Positions 13,417-63,177 are shown, counted from the stretch's first letter. The stretch is DNA of 64,000 nucleotides from Patescibacteria group bacterium (GCA_038062895.1 JBBTWJ010000005.1:3715-67714), one strand, 5' to 3'. Notes: generated by a model not told the origin, from the sequence alone. A program made the numbers and translations.

Positions 13417-13489
13417 GCTCCCCCGACAGGACTCGAACCTGTAACCTGCCGATTAACAGTCGGACGCTCTACCGTTGAGCTACAGGGGA
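13417..13489 (-). tRNA. tRNA-Asn (GTT)
   Basis: The reverse complement folds as a cloverleaf: TCCCCTG-TA-GCTCAACGGTAGAGC-...CTGTTAA...-ACAGGTTCGAGTCCTGT-CGGGGGA, with anticodon GTT. Confidence 0.9.
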
Positions 13490-13516
13490 ATGATATTTCT
13501 TCCCCTGTCTACTCTA

Positions 13517-13558
13517 CCAACAGGAAGCCGTCCACCGACTGGCGGACTACAGGGGAAT
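13517..13558. repeat. Direct repeat DR1 (hairpin + copy of tRNA-Asn 5' end)
   Basis: caggaagccgtccaccgactggcggactacaggggaat. It ends with ctacagggga, identical to the 5' end of tRNA-Asn, and overlaps the GIY-YIG stop. Confidence 0.7.
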
Positions 13559-13795
13559 TAGTTTTTTAATGAACTGTCTACCTTGATAACTTTTTAATTG
13601 TTTTTCTCTTATCAGAGCACTCGTTTTGTCTGCACAATCCTCGCGATATATTAATTCCCACATTCCTTTTGCTTTTGCAGTAAAGTGGTTGCCACGTTTT
13701 TGATTGTGTTCAAAGATTCTTCTTTTTAGATTATTTGTTTGACCAATATAAATTTTCCCAGCCTCCTGATTATAAAGTGCATAAATAGTCCACAT
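13547..13795 (-). CDS. GIY-YIG nuclease family protein (small, UPF0213-like)
   Basis: 82 aa: YALYNQEAGKIYIGQTNNLKRRIFEHN, a GIY-YIG motif. Confidence 0.85.
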   Translation of the reverse strand: MWTIYALYNQEAGKIYIGQTNNLKRRIFEHNQKRGNHFTAKAKGMWELIYREDCADKTSALIREKQLKSYQGRQFIKKLIPL

Positions 13796-13803
13796 AGCCT
13801 TAT

Positions 13804-13846
13804 TCTACAGGAAGCCGTCCGCCGACTGGCGGACTACAGGGGAATG
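13804..13846. repeat. Direct repeat DR2
   Basis: tacaggaagccgtccgccgactggcggactacaggggaat, a near-identical copy of DR1 sitting 8 bp upstream of the GIY-YIG start. Confidence 0.7.
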
Positions 13847-13985
13847 TAAAGGAACTATTTATTATACCATGGCTTTTGGAGAATACCACCAATCCATCCC
13901 ATAAATTCACCCATATCACGGGGGTGTGTAATGGTCTACCCACGGAGCAAATTATCCTAATAATTTCTTCTGATATAATCATTTC

Positions 13986-39245: not shown

Positions 39246-39286
39246 ATGTTGTTGCCCGCCACGTTTCCCGCCAACGCGGGATTACG

Positions 39287-39361
39287 TGGCGCACCTGGCG
39301 AGAATCGAACTCGCATCACCGGCTTCGGAGGCCAGTACTCTATCCGTTAAGCTACAGGTGC
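39287..39361 (-). tRNA. tRNA-Arg (CCG)
   Basis: The reverse complement is GCACCTG-TA-GCTTAACGGATAGAGT-A-CTGGC-CTCCGAA-GCCGG-..-GCGAGTTCGATTCTCGC-CAGGTGC-G-CCA. Confidence 0.85.
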
Positions 39362-42771: not shown

Positions 42772-42806
42772 CAAGGCCACCCCTTGCAAACGCCAAGGGG
42801 TGGCCT
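42772..42806. repeat. Perfect 14-bp-stem hairpin (copy 1), a likely bidirectional terminator or REP-like element
   Basis: aaggccaccccttgcaaacgccaaggggtggcctt, identical to 60675..60709. Confidence 0.75.
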
Positions 42807-42817
42807 TTAACACGATA

Positions 42818-53059: not shown

Positions 53060-54031
53060 CTAACTTTTCTTCTCCAACCGTATCCCTTCTTCTCCTAATC
53101 TGATCGGTTGAATGGAAAATCCATATGGCTTGCTTATGGCAGATATCTTATCCGGGTCTTGGGTATAGCATAATAAAAATCCCACACCCTCCGCTTTTCC
53201 GCCGCCACCGAGGATCTTCGCTGCACCTCCGGCCTTTTCAATTTTCCTGATGAGCGGAATGACTTTCCTGCTTACCACTTCCATTCCCTCCAAGCTTCGC
53301 TGTCCGGCGGTCATTGCATCCATCAATTCTTTCTCATCCCCCTCCTTGATCGCCACCGCGATATTTCGAGTTTGTATTTCATTCTCATCAAATAATCTAT
53401 TCATTCTTGACGCCTGACGCCTGACGCCTGACGCTACCAAAGAAATCATCTCCCCTGTCGTCTCCTTCGGTTTCCCGGTATTGATGAGAAAAAAATGATT
53501 GAGACTTTCGGGTATCTTGAATGGCAACTGCCAGATGCTTTTGAGAAATTCAAGTTCCTTCCGAAACCAAATAAGTCCGCCCATGGTCACCGTCGTATTA
53601 TCTCCGCCGGAAGGATTCCCGTGCATTTTTTTCTCGACTTCATAGGCAATCTGGTTAATCGCAGCCGGATTCCAAACTTTTTTAAGATAATAGGTTAGGG
53701 CTCCGACGACTCCAACGGCTACTGCGGCCGATGAGCCCAAATGATAACCGGCAGGAATATCGGAAACAACCGTAATCTTCATCGGTGGAAGATTTGCAAG
53801 TTTATACTCCCGCTTGACCACCTCAACTACATGACGGATATAGTCGGACGGCTCACTGGAGTCGATAAGTATTTTTTCTCTGGATCCCCGCGTTCGCGGG
53901 GATGACAAAGAAAGCGACTCGACAGTCACACGCAAACGGAGGTTGATGGCGGCAAGAAGCGCGGGCTTACCATAAACAACCGCGTGTTCGCCCATTAAAT
54001 GCACTTTACCGGGAACGCTTACTGTAACCAT
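53060..54031 (-). CDS. mvk: Mevalonate kinase (GHMP kinase)
   Basis: VPGKVHLMGEHAVVYGKPALLAAI...GYHLGSSAAVAVG...KILGGGG. Contains a translated palindromic element and a heptamer repeat. Confidence 0.85.
   Translation of the reverse strand: MVTVSVPGKVHLMGEHAVVYGKPALLAAINLRLRVTVESLSLSSPRTRGSREKILIDSSEPSDYIRHVVEVVKREYKLANLPPMKITVVSDIPAGYHLGSSAAVAVGVVGALTYYLKKVWNPAAINQIAYEVEKKMHGNPSGGDNTTVTMGGLIWFRKELEFLKSIWQLPFKIPESLNHFFLINTGKPKETTGEMISLVASGVRRQASRMNRLFDENEIQTRNIAVAIKEGDEKELMDAMTAGQRSLEGMEVVSRKVIPLIRKIEKAGGAAKILGGGGKAEGVGFLLCYTQDPDKISAISKPYGFSIQPIRLGEEGIRLEKKS
53399..53428. repeat. Heptanucleotide tandem repeat ([ct]tgacgc x4) inside mvk CDS
   Basis: ttgacgcctgacgcctgacgcctgacgc, translated as ASGVRRQASR. 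Confidence 0.8.
53878..53908. repeat. Palindromic element family A' inserted in-frame in mvk (translated LSSPRTRGSRE)
   Basis: ctctggatccccgcgttcgcggggatgacaa, with arms GGATCCCCGCG/CGCGGGGATC. Confidence 0.8.
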
Positions 54032-54116
54032 AAATAGTTAGTTAGCAACGCTAGTTACTTCGTTACTTAGAAAAAATTTCTACCAAGTAACTAAATAACG
54101 CGCGTTGCTCGTGTTG
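54032..54116. repeat. Intergenic inverted-repeat spacer; left arm is the reverse complement of a segment in 54432..54508
   Basis: agttagcaacgctagttacttcgttacttag ... ctaagtaac...gttgctaac. Confidence 0.7.
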
Positions 54117-54431
54117 CTAACACGGTTTCACTTTTATCCCATACGGAATCACGCCCTCATTGTTTGGCTTAATGGTGCGGCGGACAACAGTAATAACCTT
54201 CATTCCCATAAGCTTTTCCTTCCCAGCCTGTCCGCCGGCTGGCGGATCTACAAGTTGTGCGGTTATTCTTTCTCCCCCACTAAGCTCGACAAGGACCACG
54301 GGATACGGAGCCTGATCGGAAAAATCAGCCGGAGGAACACGCACCATGGTCCACGAGATTATTTTCCCGATTTTCCCGAGCATTTTACCAACGTTCTTTT
54401 GATTTCTCCAAAGCTTGACCGGACTAAGCAT
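54117..54431 (-). CDS. DUF35 OB-fold/Zn-ribbon protein (thiolase/HMG-CoA synthase scaffold, archaeal type)
   Basis: 104 aa (...WTMVRVPPADFSDQAPYPVVLVELSGGERITAQLVD...) sitting between the thiolase and kinase genes. Confidence 0.7.
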   Translation of the reverse strand: MLSPVKLWRNQKNVGKMLGKIGKIISWTMVRVPPADFSDQAPYPVVLVELSGGERITAQLVDPPAGGQAGKEKLMGMKVITVVRRTIKPNNEGVIPYGIKVKPC

Positions 54432-59697: not shown

Positions 59698-60648
59698 TCA
59701 TGCTTGGCGGTTGAGCGCAAAACTTGCAAAGTCAGTAAGAAGCGCTCCCATGCCGACAGACGCATGAATCGCTTGGGTCGCCTGAGCCGTCTGCTTTCCA
59801 AGCTTCTTGGCCTGTGTGCGGAAAGCGTCCTCACCAACTTCACCATCAAGGAAATCATCGCGCAGTTGATATGCCTCTCCCACCGCCAGGCCGTACGGTA
59901 CAAACGATTCGAGCGTTTTCTCATCCGACCCGGCGATGCTCGCTCCGATCTGAAGAGGCCGGACGACGCTGTACCAAGCAGTTTTATAACGGTTAATCGT
60001 TGCCCTGTCGGCGCTGGGCAATCCAGCGGAGGCCAACACATCCAGGCTCTGACCCAAAATCACCTCTTGTTTCATTTTCTGATAATTTACCCACACGCTC
60101 GACCAATTCCGGGAATCCTTTGGATTCCCGGAATTAACGGCCCGGTTCATCAGTTCATCCGCCCACGCCAATGCGAGGTCGCCGGCGAGGATAGCCATGC
60201 TCTCGCCGAAACGCGAACTCCCCATCCGATTCCGGGAATCCAAAGGATTCCCGGAATCTAGCGCAACCTGCTTAAACTTTTCATGAACAGTGGGACTGCC
60301 GCGGCGCATCGCATCTTCGTCAATAATATCGTCATGGATGAGAGCAAACGACTGAAATAGTTCAATTCCCATCATGGCAGAGAGCACGTTGTCATCCCCG
60401 ACCCGATCGGGGATCCAGGTATTGCGCTGGATTCCCGCGTGCGCGGGAATGACAGACTGGTGCCCCAGCCATACCAGAAACGCCCGGGTCCGCTTGCCGC
60501 CGCGGGAGGTGAGATCGGCTATTTGGTCAACGAGTTGTATGGTCTGCGGATGGATGTTTTTCGCTTCACTGTGTTTGGTCGTAAAAAAGTGTTGAAGTTC
60601 ATGATCGACGTTCTTCTTGACATCATGAAGGGCTGTAGTGAGATCCAT
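59698..60648 (-). CDS. Polyprenyl diphosphate synthase (FPP/GGPP synthase family) carrying three translated palindromic insertions
   Basis: FARM motif LIHDDIIDEDAMRRG and SARM motif GEAYQLRDDFLD. Start at the Met MDLTTALHD; the longer ORF extension is encoded by an intergenic repeat copy. Confidence 0.9.
   Translation of the reverse strand: MDLTTALHDVKKNVDHELQHFFTTKHSEAKNIHPQTIQLVDQIADLTSRGGKRTRAFLVWLGHQSVIPAHAGIQRNTWIPDRVGDDNVLSAMMGIELFQSFALIHDDIIDEDAMRRGSPTVHEKFKQVALDSGNPLDSRNRMGSSRFGESMAILAGDLALAWADELMNRAVNSGNPKDSRNWSSVWVNYQKMKQEVILGQSLDVLASAGLPSADRATINRYKTAWYSVVRPLQIGASIAGSDEKTLESFVPYGLAVGEAYQLRDDFLDGEVGEDAFRTQAKKLGKQTAQATQAIHASVGMGALLTDFASFALNRQA
60105..60142. repeat. Palindromic element family B (14-bp arms) inside polyprenyl synthase CDS, translated NSGNPKDSRNW
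   Basis: aattccgggaatcc-ttt-ggattcccggaatt. Confidence 0.85.
60229..60262. repeat. Palindromic element family B, second copy, inside polyprenyl synthase CDS, translated DSGNPLDSRNR
   Basis: gattccgggaatcc-aaa-ggattcccggaatc. Confidence 0.85.
60427..60454. repeat. Palindromic element family A inside polyprenyl synthase CDS, translated SVIPAHAGIQ
   Basis: ctggattcccgcgtgcgcgggaatgaca. Confidence 0.85.
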
Positions 60649-60674
60649 GGGAGAAGTATACCAAATTTCATAAG

Positions 60675-60709
60675 GCCACCCCTTGCAAACGCCAAGGGGT
60701 GGCCTTGAA
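60675..60709. repeat. Perfect hairpin (copy 2), identical to 42772..42806
   Basis: aaggccaccccttgcaaacgccaaggggtggcctt. Confidence 0.75.
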
Positions 60710-60724
60710 AAACACATTTGAACT

Positions 60725-60752
60725 CTGGATTCCCGCCGTCGCGGGAATGACA
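60725..60752. repeat. Palindromic element family A, intergenic copy
   Basis: ctggattcccgccgtcgcgggaatgaca. Confidence 0.8.
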
Positions 60753-60804
60753 ATTCTTCGCATATTGTTGACAGTCGCCTTCAGCTTTCCGTACACTTAT
60801 ACTC

Positions 60805-61113
60805 ATGGAGCGTATCTTTGCCGTCGACCTTCAAAATACATCACCAACGTTTAGCGCGTATCCCACGTTCGGGGCATTAGTCACCATCATCGTGCGCAAC
60901 TCATTCGTGCTGGCTGGCATCATAAGCTTCCTGCTTTTGGTTTTCGGAGGATTTAGCGTTATAATGGCAGCAGGATCTGGCGACACGAAGGAGCTTGAGA
61001 AAGGTCAAAAGACGATCACGTATGCGATCCTGGGACTTATTCTCGTCGTCACGTCGTACTGGATCGTCCAGATTATCGAAAAAGTGTCGGGTGTCAAACT
61101 TATCACACCATAA
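60805..61113 (+). CDS. Pilin-like small membrane protein, paralog 3
   Basis: FGGFSVIMAAGSGDTKELEKGQKTITYAILGLILVVTSYWIVQII. Confidence 0.7.
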   Translation: MERIFAVDLQNTSPTFSAYPTFGALVTIIVRNSFVLAGIISFLLLVFGGFSVIMAAGSGDTKELEKGQKTITYAILGLILVVTSYWIVQIIEKVSGVKLITP

Positions 61114-61114
61114 T

Positions 61115-61492
61115 ATGTTCATGTTTACTTCTAAAATTTTTGCTCAAGGAAGCGCGGCAAACGACGTCGTCGGTAGTGTCACAAACCCCCTGGTGGCTTA
61201 CGGCAGCGTCACACAAGGGCTCATCCCGTTTTTTACCAATCTCATCCGCCTCATGTTTGTCGGAGCGGGTATATACGCCTTCATAAATTTCATTATTGCC
61301 GGATACCAGTATATGAGCGCGGGCGGCGATACCAAGGCGCTTGCTTCTGCCTGGGCGCGCATTTGGCAATCTCTGTTGGGGCTCGTCATCATCGTAGGTT
61401 CGTTTGCCCTGGCGGCACTTTTTGGATATCTTATATTCGGCAACGCGGGCTTTATTCTTAATCCGGTCATTTATGGACCGGGAGACAAATAA
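61115..61492 (+). CDS. Pilin-like small membrane protein, paralog 4
   Basis: Start at ATG 61115 just after the previous stop. IAGYQYMSAGGDTKALASAWARIWQSLLGLVIIVGSF. Confidence 0.65.
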   Translation: MFMFTSKIFAQGSAANDVVGSVTNPLVAYGSVTQGLIPFFTNLIRLMFVGAGIYAFINFIIAGYQYMSAGGDTKALASAWARIWQSLLGLVIIVGSFALAALFGYLIFGNAGFILNPVIYGPGDK

Positions 61493-61494
61493 CT

Positions 61495-61884
61495 ATGAAG
61501 GTGTTTGCTTCAGAACCACTTGGAACAATCGGGGGCGAGGGACTGGGACCCTGGGGCTTAATCGGAAAAAACCTTAGCGCTGATAACGGTGTTGCCGGAT
61601 TAAGAGCAGTTACCGCAACAATTTCCGGGGTCATCGGCGTCATGACGGTGGCTGCCGGCATCTGGTTTATCTTCCAAGTCCTCATCGGAGGCTTTTACTG
61701 GATCACATCAGCAGGCGACAAAACGAAACTCAATGAAGCACGCGACCGCATACAAAATGCGGCAATCGGACTCGTCGTCGTCGTCGCAGGATGGTCGATC
61801 CTCGCGCTCGCCGGACAATTCTTGGGGTACGATATTGTCATCAGCAATCCCGGAGAAGTAATAAAACAATTAAAAATACAATAA
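61495..61884 (+). CDS. Pilin-like small membrane protein, paralog 5
   Basis: IGGFYWITSAGDKTKLNEARDRIQNAAIGLVVVVAGWSILAL. Confidence 0.7.
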   Translation: MKVFASEPLGTIGGEGLGPWGLIGKNLSADNGVAGLRAVTATISGVIGVMTVAAGIWFIFQVLIGGFYWITSAGDKTKLNEARDRIQNAAIGLVVVVAGWSILALAGQFLGYDIVISNPGEVIKQLKIQ

Positions 61885-61893
61885 CAATTTACT

Positions 61894-61921
61894 CTGGATT
61901 CCCGCCTGCGCGGGAATGACA
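61894..61921. repeat. Palindromic element family A, copy overlapping the start region of the next pilin gene
   Basis: ctggattcccgcctgcgcgggaatgaca. Confidence 0.8.
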
Positions 61922-62266
61922 CACATGAATCGAACACTAGCTCAGCTTATCAATCCCGTCATCCCGGAGATCATCGGCAAGGGACCAGTCGAAAAAGGAA
62001 GTGTCGCCATCGGCATACTCCTCACACAAGTATTTAGCGCGCTTTTTTTATTCGCATTCATCACCGCATTTTTATATCTCATCACCGGAGCCATGCATTG
62101 GATCACAAGCGGTGGAGACAAAACCAAGCTTGAGGAAGCGAGAAACCGCATCATCCACTCAATCGTCGGCATCATCGTGGTGGCCTCATCATGGGCGATT
62201 ATCACGCTTATTGGTCAATTTATCGGATTGGATCTTGAAAATCTTCCGATCCCGACGATCAAATAG
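61916..62266 (+). CDS. Pilin-like small membrane protein, paralog 6
   Basis: TGAMHWITSGGDKTKLEEARNRIIHSIVGIIVVASSWAIITLI. The first ATG lies inside the repeat; the true start may be the ATG at 61925. Confidence 0.7.
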   Translation: MTHMNRTLAQLINPVIPEIIGKGPVEKGSVAIGILLTQVFSALFLFAFITAFLYLITGAMHWITSGGDKTKLEEARNRIIHSIVGIIVVASSWAIITLIGQFIGLDLENLPIPTIK

Positions 62267-62354
62267 ACCTAACCGTCTATTGACAAACAGCGTCCATTTG
62301 CAGAACAATAAGAAAGAGGATATAATCGATACTAGCTGATAAAGGAGGATCCAT

Positions 62355-62699
62355 ATGTTTGAACAAATTTTTGCCGCAGGAGAACCAACAATAACAATTT
62401 CCCGGGACAGAGCACAGTTTTTCAAAATCCAAAATTTGGGCGAGCTCATCAGTGCCGCTGTGGGCGCACTCTTGGTCATTGCCGCTCTCCTTGCGTTTTT
62501 CTTTCTTATCCTGGGTGGCATCCAGTGGATCACCTCCGGTGGAGATAAAACCGGCATGGAAGCAGCCCGCAATAAAATTACTCACGCCGTCGTGGGTCTC
62601 GTGATCGTCGGAGCCGCTTGGGCCATCATGATCCTCGTCCAGAACTTCCTGGGCGTCACGATCATCGGCGACACACTTACGCTTCCCAAGCCATTCTAA
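62355..62699 (+). CDS. Pilin-like small membrane protein, paralog 7
   Basis: Strong SD aaaggagg 6 nt upstream. LGGIQWITSGGDKTGMEAARNKITHAVVGLVIVGAAWAIMIL. Confidence 0.75.
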   Translation: MFEQIFAAGEPTITISRDRAQFFKIQNLGELISAAVGALLVIAALLAFFFLILGGIQWITSGGDKTGMEAARNKITHAVVGLVIVGAAWAIMILVQNFLGVTIIGDTLTLPKPF

Positions 62700-62787
62700 C
62701 AACTACGTGATGGGTGAATGAGGGATGAGTCAATACCATAACACTTCTGGACTTTGTTCTATAAACCCGCGATAATACAAGTATCGT

Positions 62788-63177
62788 ATGACTCGCAAAG
62801 CGTTTCCCTCATTCTATTATTCTCTTATTCCATTATTCGTTTATTTCTTTATTAGCTTGTCGCCCGTCAATGCCGCCCCGTGGGGCGGGTGTGTCATTGA
62901 GGAGGCGGCAACCCTCCAGTGTCTCGTCCCCATGTTTGAGCGCATCGTGCAGGGAATTCTTGCACTCTCCGGCGTTGCGCTCTTTGTGATGCTGGTCATC
63001 GGCGGATACAATTTTCTCCTCTCGGGAGGCGACCAAAAAAAGCTCGAGACGGCCCGTAGCACAATCACCACGGCGATCTTGGGGCTCGTGATCATGGTGA
63101 TTGCCTACCTCATCATCAAAACCATCGCAAACTTTACCGGTGTCCAGTCCGTCACTCAATTTAATATTCCGCAGTAG
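62788..63177 (+). CDS. Pilin-like small membrane protein, paralog 8
   Basis: IGGYNFLLSGGDQKKLETARSTITTAILGLVIMVIAYLII, with a Cys pair in the N-terminal region. Confidence 0.7.
   Translation: MTRKAFPSFYYSLIPLFVYFFISLSPVNAAPWGGCVIEEAATLQCLVPMFERIVQGILALSGVALFVMLVIGGYNFLLSGGDQKKLETARSTITTAILGLVIMVIAYLIIKTIANFTGVQSVTQFNIPQ

Follow-up and report, generated by a model that had tools for sequence, protein, structure and literature searches.

The window analysed here, a stretch of 64,000 nucleotides from a Patescibacteria group bacterium, carries on its minus strand a mevalonate kinase (mvk) gene whose product is 100% identical to the NCBI protein 'mevalonate kinase [Patescibacteria group bacterium]', has its closest named relatives in Candidatus Gottesmanbacteria and matches solved mevalonate kinases at E = 5e-21. 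The translation runs MVTVSVPGKVHLMGEHAVVYG...VESLSLSSPRTRGSREKILIDSSEP... and reads ...VESLSLSSPRTRGSREKILIDSS... C-terminal to the MGEHAVVYG stretch. An earlier note on this DNA, made from the sequence alone, had placed a palindromic segment encoding LSSPRTRGSRE inside this CDS after GEHAVVYG, and both its position and its translation agree with our reading. The segment is the 30-mer CTCTGGATCCCCGCGTTCGCGGGGATGACA (window 53878-53907), which on the minus strand has the form TGTC-ATCCCCGC-GAAC-GCGGGGAT-CCAGAG, the mvk sense strand carrying TGTCATCCCCGCGAACGCGGGGATCCAG at the element. The segment, its host and the related features of the window are:

13547-13795, minus strand: candidate Ssn-family nuclease, an 82-aa single-domain GIY-YIG ORF (Pfam PF01541, E = 7e-17)
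53060-54031, minus strand: mevalonate kinase CDS, 323 aa, host of the element and a mosaic gene (ORF, protein matches)
53878-53907, minus strand: CGTC-1 REP / NTS-like hairpin, in frame within mvk (consensus search, ORF translation, hairpin scan)
59698-60648, minus strand: polyprenyl synthase CDS, 316 aa, host of a doublet (Pfam PF00348 on the called gene)
60391-60417, plus strand: related unit, TGTC-ATCCCCGA-CCCGA-TCGGGGAT-CCA, encoding WIPDRVGDD, left half of a tail-to-tail doublet (hairpin scan)
60425-60454, minus strand: element copy encoding SVIPAHAGIQ, right half of the inverted doublet (consensus and hairpin search)
60723-60752, minus strand: intergenic copy between the divergent polyprenyl synthase and pilin genes (consensus search)
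61892-61921, minus strand: intergenic copy between two pilin-like genes (consensus search)

The mvk segment had been proposed to belong to a family with members elsewhere in the window. Indeed, the consensus given in the earlier note, searched with at most three mismatches, finds exactly four sites (53878, 60425, 60723 and 61892), all in one orientation, and has no match in 100 dinucleotide-preserving shuffles. A perfect-hairpin scan adds a fifth copy, overlooked in the note, at 60391-60417, which has the opposite orientation and a 5-nt loop; it lies 10 nt from the 60425 unit, and together they form an inverted doublet inside the polyprenyl synthase CDS that folds at -19.4 kcal/mol. The four consensus sites are separated by 6.5 kb, 0.3 kb and 1.2 kb. 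All five fall within 8 kb of the 73 kb read (the window and 9 kb to its right, the latter holding neither further copies nor a GIY-YIG gene), so that this is not a high-copy family here. The two ORFs that the note had regarded as spuriously extended both begin inside intergenic copies, the one at 59698-60753 starting LSFPRRRESRV and the one at 61695-61937 reading VFDSCVSFPRRRESRV.

The surroundings of these copies deserve a brief description. The two intergenic copies (60723 and 61892) bracket the first three of six small T4SS-pilin-like genes, which are followed by VirD4/TraG-like and VirB4-like ATPase genes (window 60805-63177; L295:10423-20390), and a TTGACA-18-TACACT site lies 15 nt downstream of the 60723 copy. 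Next to mvk on its upstream side, the spacer contains a long imperfect inverted repeat (window 54033-54118), to which Rfam gives weak, sub-threshold miRNA-precursor-like matches.

Read on the minus strand, the canonical copies consist of TGTC + ATYCCCGC + 4 nt + GCGGGRAT + CCA(G). The definition of CGTC-1 REPs asks for an unpaired CGTC tag at the end (many repeats have TGTC instead, and CCTC is also accepted), an 8-bp stem whose first two positions are A and T, a 4-nt loop and an unpaired CCA tail; the group comprises the Neisseria dRS3 and Rickettsia RPE-6 elements (Di Nocera, De Gregorio and Rocco 2013, PMC3733652). Each of these features recurs at our locus: the tag is TGTC in five of five window copies and CGTC in the copies of related loci L002 and L252, the stem is 8 bp long with AT first and encloses a 4-nt loop (ATCCCCGC-GAAC-GCGGGGAT; ATTCCCGC-N4-GCGGGAAT), and every window copy has the CCA tail. 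The 5-nt loop of the 60391 copy fits CGTC families 2-4. Like CGTC-1 REPs, the element occurs both as single units and as inverted dimers, with five copies including one doublet in 73 kb and more doublets at L004, L247, L252, L256 and L271. The copies likewise match the 28-nt NTS consensus CGTCATTCCCGCGMAVGCGGGAATCYRG, which has been generalised as the 'Ssn-related motif' (SRM; Chenal et al. 2025, PMC11893778), and they do so including the orienting 5′ flank, with one difference (C1 to T) at both 61892 and 60425, two at 60723 and three in mvk. Two of the three mvk differences form a compensatory pair (T:A to C:G), so the C-for-T variation that the note had pointed out in the arms is real and preserves pairing (ATCCCCGC/GCGGGGAT vs ATTCCCGC/GCGGGAAT).

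Beyond the window, we searched with the pattern CTGGATYCCCGC-N4-GCGGGRATGAC, in which stem position 3 was left free on both sides, and found matches in at least 120 viral contigs and at least 120 GTDB species genomes. Among the genome matches listed are Neisseria lactamica, N. dentiae and many Alpha-, Beta-, Gamma- and Deltaproteobacteria, as well as Dehalococcoidia (Chloroflexi), Planctomycetes, Nitrospirae and Bacteroidetes; the CPR groups among them are Paceibacteria, Parcubacteria, Saccharibacteria, Uhrbacteria and Peribacteria, and one Nanoarchaeota MAG is also present. The 27-mer of the 61892 copy is the commonest variant among the matches listed (82 of 336). At stem position 3, these 336 matches have T:A in 295 cases, C:G in 37 and T:G in four, while C:A does not occur. 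Moreover, a comparison of 18 CPR copies shows changes on both sides at three of the eight stem pairs, amounting to 11 cells, a number that none of 500 shuffles reaches, and the pairing is lost once the partner is shifted by one to three columns; the 100% pairing of these CPR copies is partly so by construction, because the finder allowed at most one stem mismatch. The hairpin stem is thus kept by compensatory changes. When folded as single-stranded DNA, the four single copies reach -8.9 to -11.9 kcal/mol (z -3.3 to -4.5), the mvk copy -11.9 kcal/mol (z = -4.3).

At the mvk-ortholog loci of CPR relatives, 12 of about 25 copies in 529 kb, or about half, are intragenic. Elsewhere among the matches, inverted doublets lie inside long ORFs at L172:1509-1584 (577 aa), L146:6951-7037 (306 aa) and L141:4561-4649 (215 aa), in Nanoarchaeota, Parcubacteria and Paceibacteria MAGs, respectively, where they read as VIPAQAGIQ...MDSCFRRND and similar; the archaeal (DPANN, Nanoarchaeota) assignment of L172 could be a binning error. 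In Rhodopseudomonas pentothenatexigens (L157:5845-7310), there are six same-strand copies, the first five about 312 bp apart and the sixth 195 bp further on, a regular spacing that suggests a tandem array of a longer motif-containing unit.

Comparison with related loci reveals presence/absence polymorphism at intergenic sites and in mvk alike. The syntenic locus L002, whose mvk is 81% identical, provides two clean empty sites. At the 61892 site, the window has 38 nt including the copy where L002 passes directly from TAA to ATATG, and at the 60723 site, about 50 nt with the copy are absent from the L002 divergent spacer upstream of the pilin operon, the insert being flanked by a hairpin and a TTGACA box that are both conserved in L002. 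The own copy of L002 sits at another pilin junction. In mvk, the nearest orthologs, P0002 (L001, 85% identity) and P0005 (L002, 81%), are exactly 10 codons shorter at the site. Measured between the anchors NLRLxVxVE and SxEPxDY, with thirty more distant loci falling outside the anchor matches, the mvk loop takes the following forms:

26 aa, without insert: 11 orthologs, the two closest (L001/P0002 and L002/P0005) among them
32 aa, SSSFPRTRES, same frame, T:A stem variant: L252
36 aa, LSLSSPRTRGS: the window, L003, L004 and L245
48 and 51 aa, inverted doublets (SFPRKRESS...LDPRVKPEDD; SFPRKRESS...DPRLRGDD): L256 and L247

We rejected a different frame for SSFPRTRES of P0023, which is read in the same frame as the mvk copy and represents the T:A stem variant. 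Since alleles differ in the loop around it, the mvk insertion has no sharp boundaries. The earlier note had held that one mobile palindrome family occupies coding and non-coding sites, had called for a comparison of orthologs, and would have given way to an ordinary loop had there been no other copies and a segment common to all orthologs. The family does occupy both kinds of site, other copies exist, and the nearest mvk orthologs are without the element, other orthologs having variant forms or inverted doublets at its site. The copies also behave like insertions, as seen from the empty sites of L002 and the shorter mvk orthologs.

With the loop left out, a neighbour-joining tree makes the window mvk the sister of the element-free P0002, and the remaining LSSPRTRGS alleles belong to two clades remote from it. 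Sliding comparison of the gene gives these identities:

most of mvk: 90-97% to L001
segment starting at nt 61: 85% to L004 vs 74% to L001
segment starting at nt 91 (nt 91-150): 92% to L004 vs 61% to L001
nt 571-630: 97% to L002 vs 60% to L001

Two patches therefore depart from the L001-like background, nt 61-150 resembling the L004 allele and nt 571-660 the L002 allele. The element sits in the former, a patch of about 90 nt that matches a distant element-bearing allele. The conserved block runs into the mvk-specific sequence 5′ of the tag, GAGTCGCTYTCTTTG, and the element DNA is conserved while its flanks diverge. Together, the patchwise identity and the extension of the block into mvk-specific flank indicate that the mvk gene is a mosaic. 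The patchy occurrence of the element among mvk orthologs is most readily accounted for by short-patch homologous recombination involving an allele that bears it, rather than by a fresh insertion in the present lineage; through such recombination, the patch was either gained by the window lineage or lost in its sister lineage. We also weighed whether the element had inserted more than once, independently, at this mvk site, but discarded the idea because the gene is a mosaic and because the alleles have in common the mvk-specific 5′ block, which independent insertions would not share. All compared mvk alleles come from groundwater metagenomes, several of them from the same Hainich well series. 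The second patch (window 53372-53461), 97% identical to L002 and 57-60% to L001, has no hairpin element inside.

At the protein level, the insert adds exactly 10 codons in a beta-hairpin loop. In an AlphaFold2 model (mean pLDDT 76), residues 40-53 are non-regular and lie between strands 24-39 and 54-58, with a pLDDT of 59 for residues 41-50 compared to 88 and 83 in the neighbouring blocks. Read directly from the consensus, the element is open in five of six frames: three tag-first frames (CHSRxxGNP, VIPAxAGIQ and SFPRxRES) and two reverse frames (WIPAxAGMT and DSRxRGND), the sole closed frame reading the AATGAC flank as TGA. The frames used in the window give SSPRTRGS in mvk and VIPAHAGIQ and WIPDRVGDD in polyprenyl synthase. 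The mvk insert is probably a tolerated passenger loop and not an adaptive domain. Single and dimeric CGTC and GTAG REPs in frame within housekeeping genes, recurrent at the same site of orthologs, have been catalogued (PMC3733652), and the translated copies inside ORFs, the dimers encoding 20-30 aa and the recurrence at about the same ortholog site are traits that our element shares with CGTC-1. Rickettsia palindromic elements (RPE-1 and relatives) are similarly palindromic repeats in frame in housekeeping genes, tolerated as surface loops, but they are 100-150 bp long and confined to Rickettsia, whereas the window unit measures about 30 bp and its family spans many phyla.

The match to the NTS consensus directs attention to a nuclease. 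In Neisseria, binding of the NTS by the 94-aa GIY-YIG protein SsnA is confined to single-stranded DNA of the oriented strand, and the cut falls upstream of the motif; to account for the multiplication of copies, it has been proposed that NTS-ssnA-NTS is an IS-like unit that became domesticated (PMC11893778). Genes of the ssnA type encode single-domain GIY-YIG proteins (cd10448) and usually have the motif on their flanks. In unrelated loci, we found 10 GIY-YIG ORFs at 4-51 bp from pattern matches, the one at L072 being flanked on both sides, so that GIY-YIG ORFs abut the motif in many settings as in the NTS/SRM system. GIY-YIG ORFs are also present at CPR loci L252 and L246 and in the window, where the candidate Ssn-family nuclease at 13547-13795 is 34% identical (BLASTP, E = 4e-12) to the 27-mer-flanked ORF of L072. 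A hand-made regular expression gave no match to the window ORF, which was found by phmmer with a YhbQ query and then by an HMM; because the ORF is in the HMM seed, its HMM score is circular, and Pfam and BLASTP serve as the independent checks. As in the NTS/SRM arrangement, this single-domain ORF has hairpins on both sides, but they are of a different kind, GTAG-TCCGCC-AGTC-GGCGGA, and not CGTC-1. These GTAG-tagged hairpins are two direct copies of GTAGTCCGCCAGTCGGYGGAC, one at 13530-13550 and the other at 13817-13837. In front of each copy stands ATTCCCCTGTAG, a sequence with which the adjacent tRNA-Asn (13417-13489) also begins at its 5′ end. The whole region 13417-13850 falls within 12-16 kb, where the GC content is low (0.39), and has the appearance of an SRM-ssn-SRM cassette that was inserted next to the tRNA.

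The window nuclease ORF is 40 kb away from the CGTC-1 copies. Since no GIY-YIG gene adjoins any CGTC-1 copy in the 73 kb read from the present genome, the proposal that the mvk hairpin may be a substrate of a resident Ssn-type nuclease draws on its family membership. Under this proposal, the element would spread by a mechanism linked to an Ssn-type nuclease and, once spread, would move among related lineages by homologous recombination. Taken as a whole, we consider it very probable that the mvk segment is one copy of the CGTC-1 REP (= dRS3/NTS/SRM) hairpin family, whose spread would be linked to such a nuclease and then to homologous recombination, and which is carried in mvk as a tolerated passenger loop.

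Several other readings have to be weighed against this one. The hairpin might be kept for work at the RNA level, in mRNA stability, translation pausing or termination, a role that is not mutually exclusive with the reading just given but that we hold to be unlikely. It would be in line with the argument that REPs, in many cases, are transcribed and function as RNA (Di Nocera 2013, PMC3733652), with the conservation of the stem by covariation, and with the fact that in coding copies the tag-first strand of singles and of the first doublet unit is the sense strand. Yet an intrinsic terminator, with its GC-rich hairpin followed by a T run, is not formed by any copy, for all of them lack a T tract and a terminator scan picked out none of them. 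Neither does the element have an Rfam match, and the 60723 copy, placed upstream of a promoter-like site between divergent genes, need not be transcribed at all; SsnA, too, acts on single-stranded DNA and not on RNA (PMC11893778). That the element is a REP or REPIN mobilised by a RAYT (an IS200/IS605-like Y1 transposase) is a much less probable idea, although the hairpin with a short 5′ tag, the frequency of inverted doublets, the presumed recognition of single-stranded DNA and the general architecture all recall REPINs. RAYT-associated REPs carry a GTAG tag and have a Y1 transposase as partner, whereas the element family, tagged CGTC or TGTC, has been reported without a dedicated transposase, and the genes found beside its pattern in unrelated loci encode GIY-YIG proteins and not Y1 transposases.

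We see hardly any chance that LSSPRTRGS is an ordinary loop whose palindromic DNA merely happens to resemble the intergenic copies. The mvk loop region does vary in length and sequence among orthologs, as such an explanation would have it, but chance predicts no match (none in the 100 shuffles), the closest orthologs are without the segment, its DNA is conserved where the flanks diverge, and the exact 27-mer is present in unrelated viral contigs. Degenerate or orphan CRISPR repeats appear equally remote as a source of the copies. The core of the element, CCCCGCG...CGCGGGGAT, appears to resemble the E. coli type I-E CRISPR repeat, which would favour this reading; against it, the copies are irregularly spaced with no spacer-like units between them, occur as inverted doublets and inside genes, and have no CRISPR-DR match in Rfam. 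A CRISPR remnant was excluded by spacing and orientation.

The element family is already published and represents neither a new kind of element nor a new mechanism; what the window copy adds to this described and very widespread family is a new host and a new site. Already on record are the family itself, its breadth across phyla, its nuclease partner and its in-frame placement in genes. New here are the Patescibacteria host, the high intragenic share at the mvk-ortholog loci, the mvk loop as a recurrent site and the recombination mosaic. The host differs from those of the 2013 survey, which covered five phyla and mostly Alphaproteobacteria (PMC3733652), and so do the low copy number in the window region and the intragenic placement of about half of the copies at the mvk-ortholog loci. 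The main texts of Di Nocera 2013 (PMC3733652) and Chenal 2025 (PMC11893778) do not mention Patescibacteria, nor does the main text of the latter mention intragenic copies outside Neisseria. The dRS3/NTS/SRM family thus reaches ultra-small groundwater bacteria, where about half of its copies at the loci compared are intragenic, in contrast to the 2% of NTS copies reported inside genes in N. meningitidis (PMC11893778).

For annotation, recognition of the element removes the spurious ORF starts at 60753 and 61937 and explains odd peptides such as SFPRxRES, VIPAxAGIQ, LDSRxRGND and SSPRTRGS in Patescibacteria proteins. Mevalonate kinase offers a tractable natural case, because alleles with the element, without it and with inverted doublets co-occur in one aquifer system, and these alleles could be used to ask what Ssn-type nucleases do outside Neisseria. 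A tentative and rather doubtful extension would be that in Patescibacteria, and possibly in DPANN archaea, Ssn-type repeats are unusually often intragenic and that GIY-YIG cutting of single-stranded DNA at the hairpin seeds short-patch recombination, which would make the repeats hot spots that shuffle the loop lengths of housekeeping enzymes such as mevalonate kinase.

Other palindromic sequences occur in the same window. Two perfect palindromes of 31 nt, AATTCCGGGAATCC-N3-GGATTCCCGGAATT, are read in frame within the polyprenyl synthase CDS (60105-60135 and 60228-60258) and encode SGNPLDSRN and NSGNPKDSRN, with no corresponding residues in L004. Their motif was found only in contigs of the present organism (L295 and L296), and it is similar in sequence to the inner junction of CGTC doublets joined tail to tail. 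A 35-nt hairpin, AAGGCCACCCCTTG-caaacgc-CAAGGGGTGGCCTT, occurs in identical form at 42773-42807 and 60672-60706. Because the syntenic L002 spacer has a near-identical one, it is either another repeat family, distinct from the first, or a regulatory hairpin that has been conserved. Finally, CCCGCCAACGCGGG at 39267-39280 forms part of a longer palindrome, CGCCACGTTTCCCGCCAACGCGGGATTACGTGGCG, immediately beside tRNA-Arg (39287-39361), and does not belong to the CGTC family.
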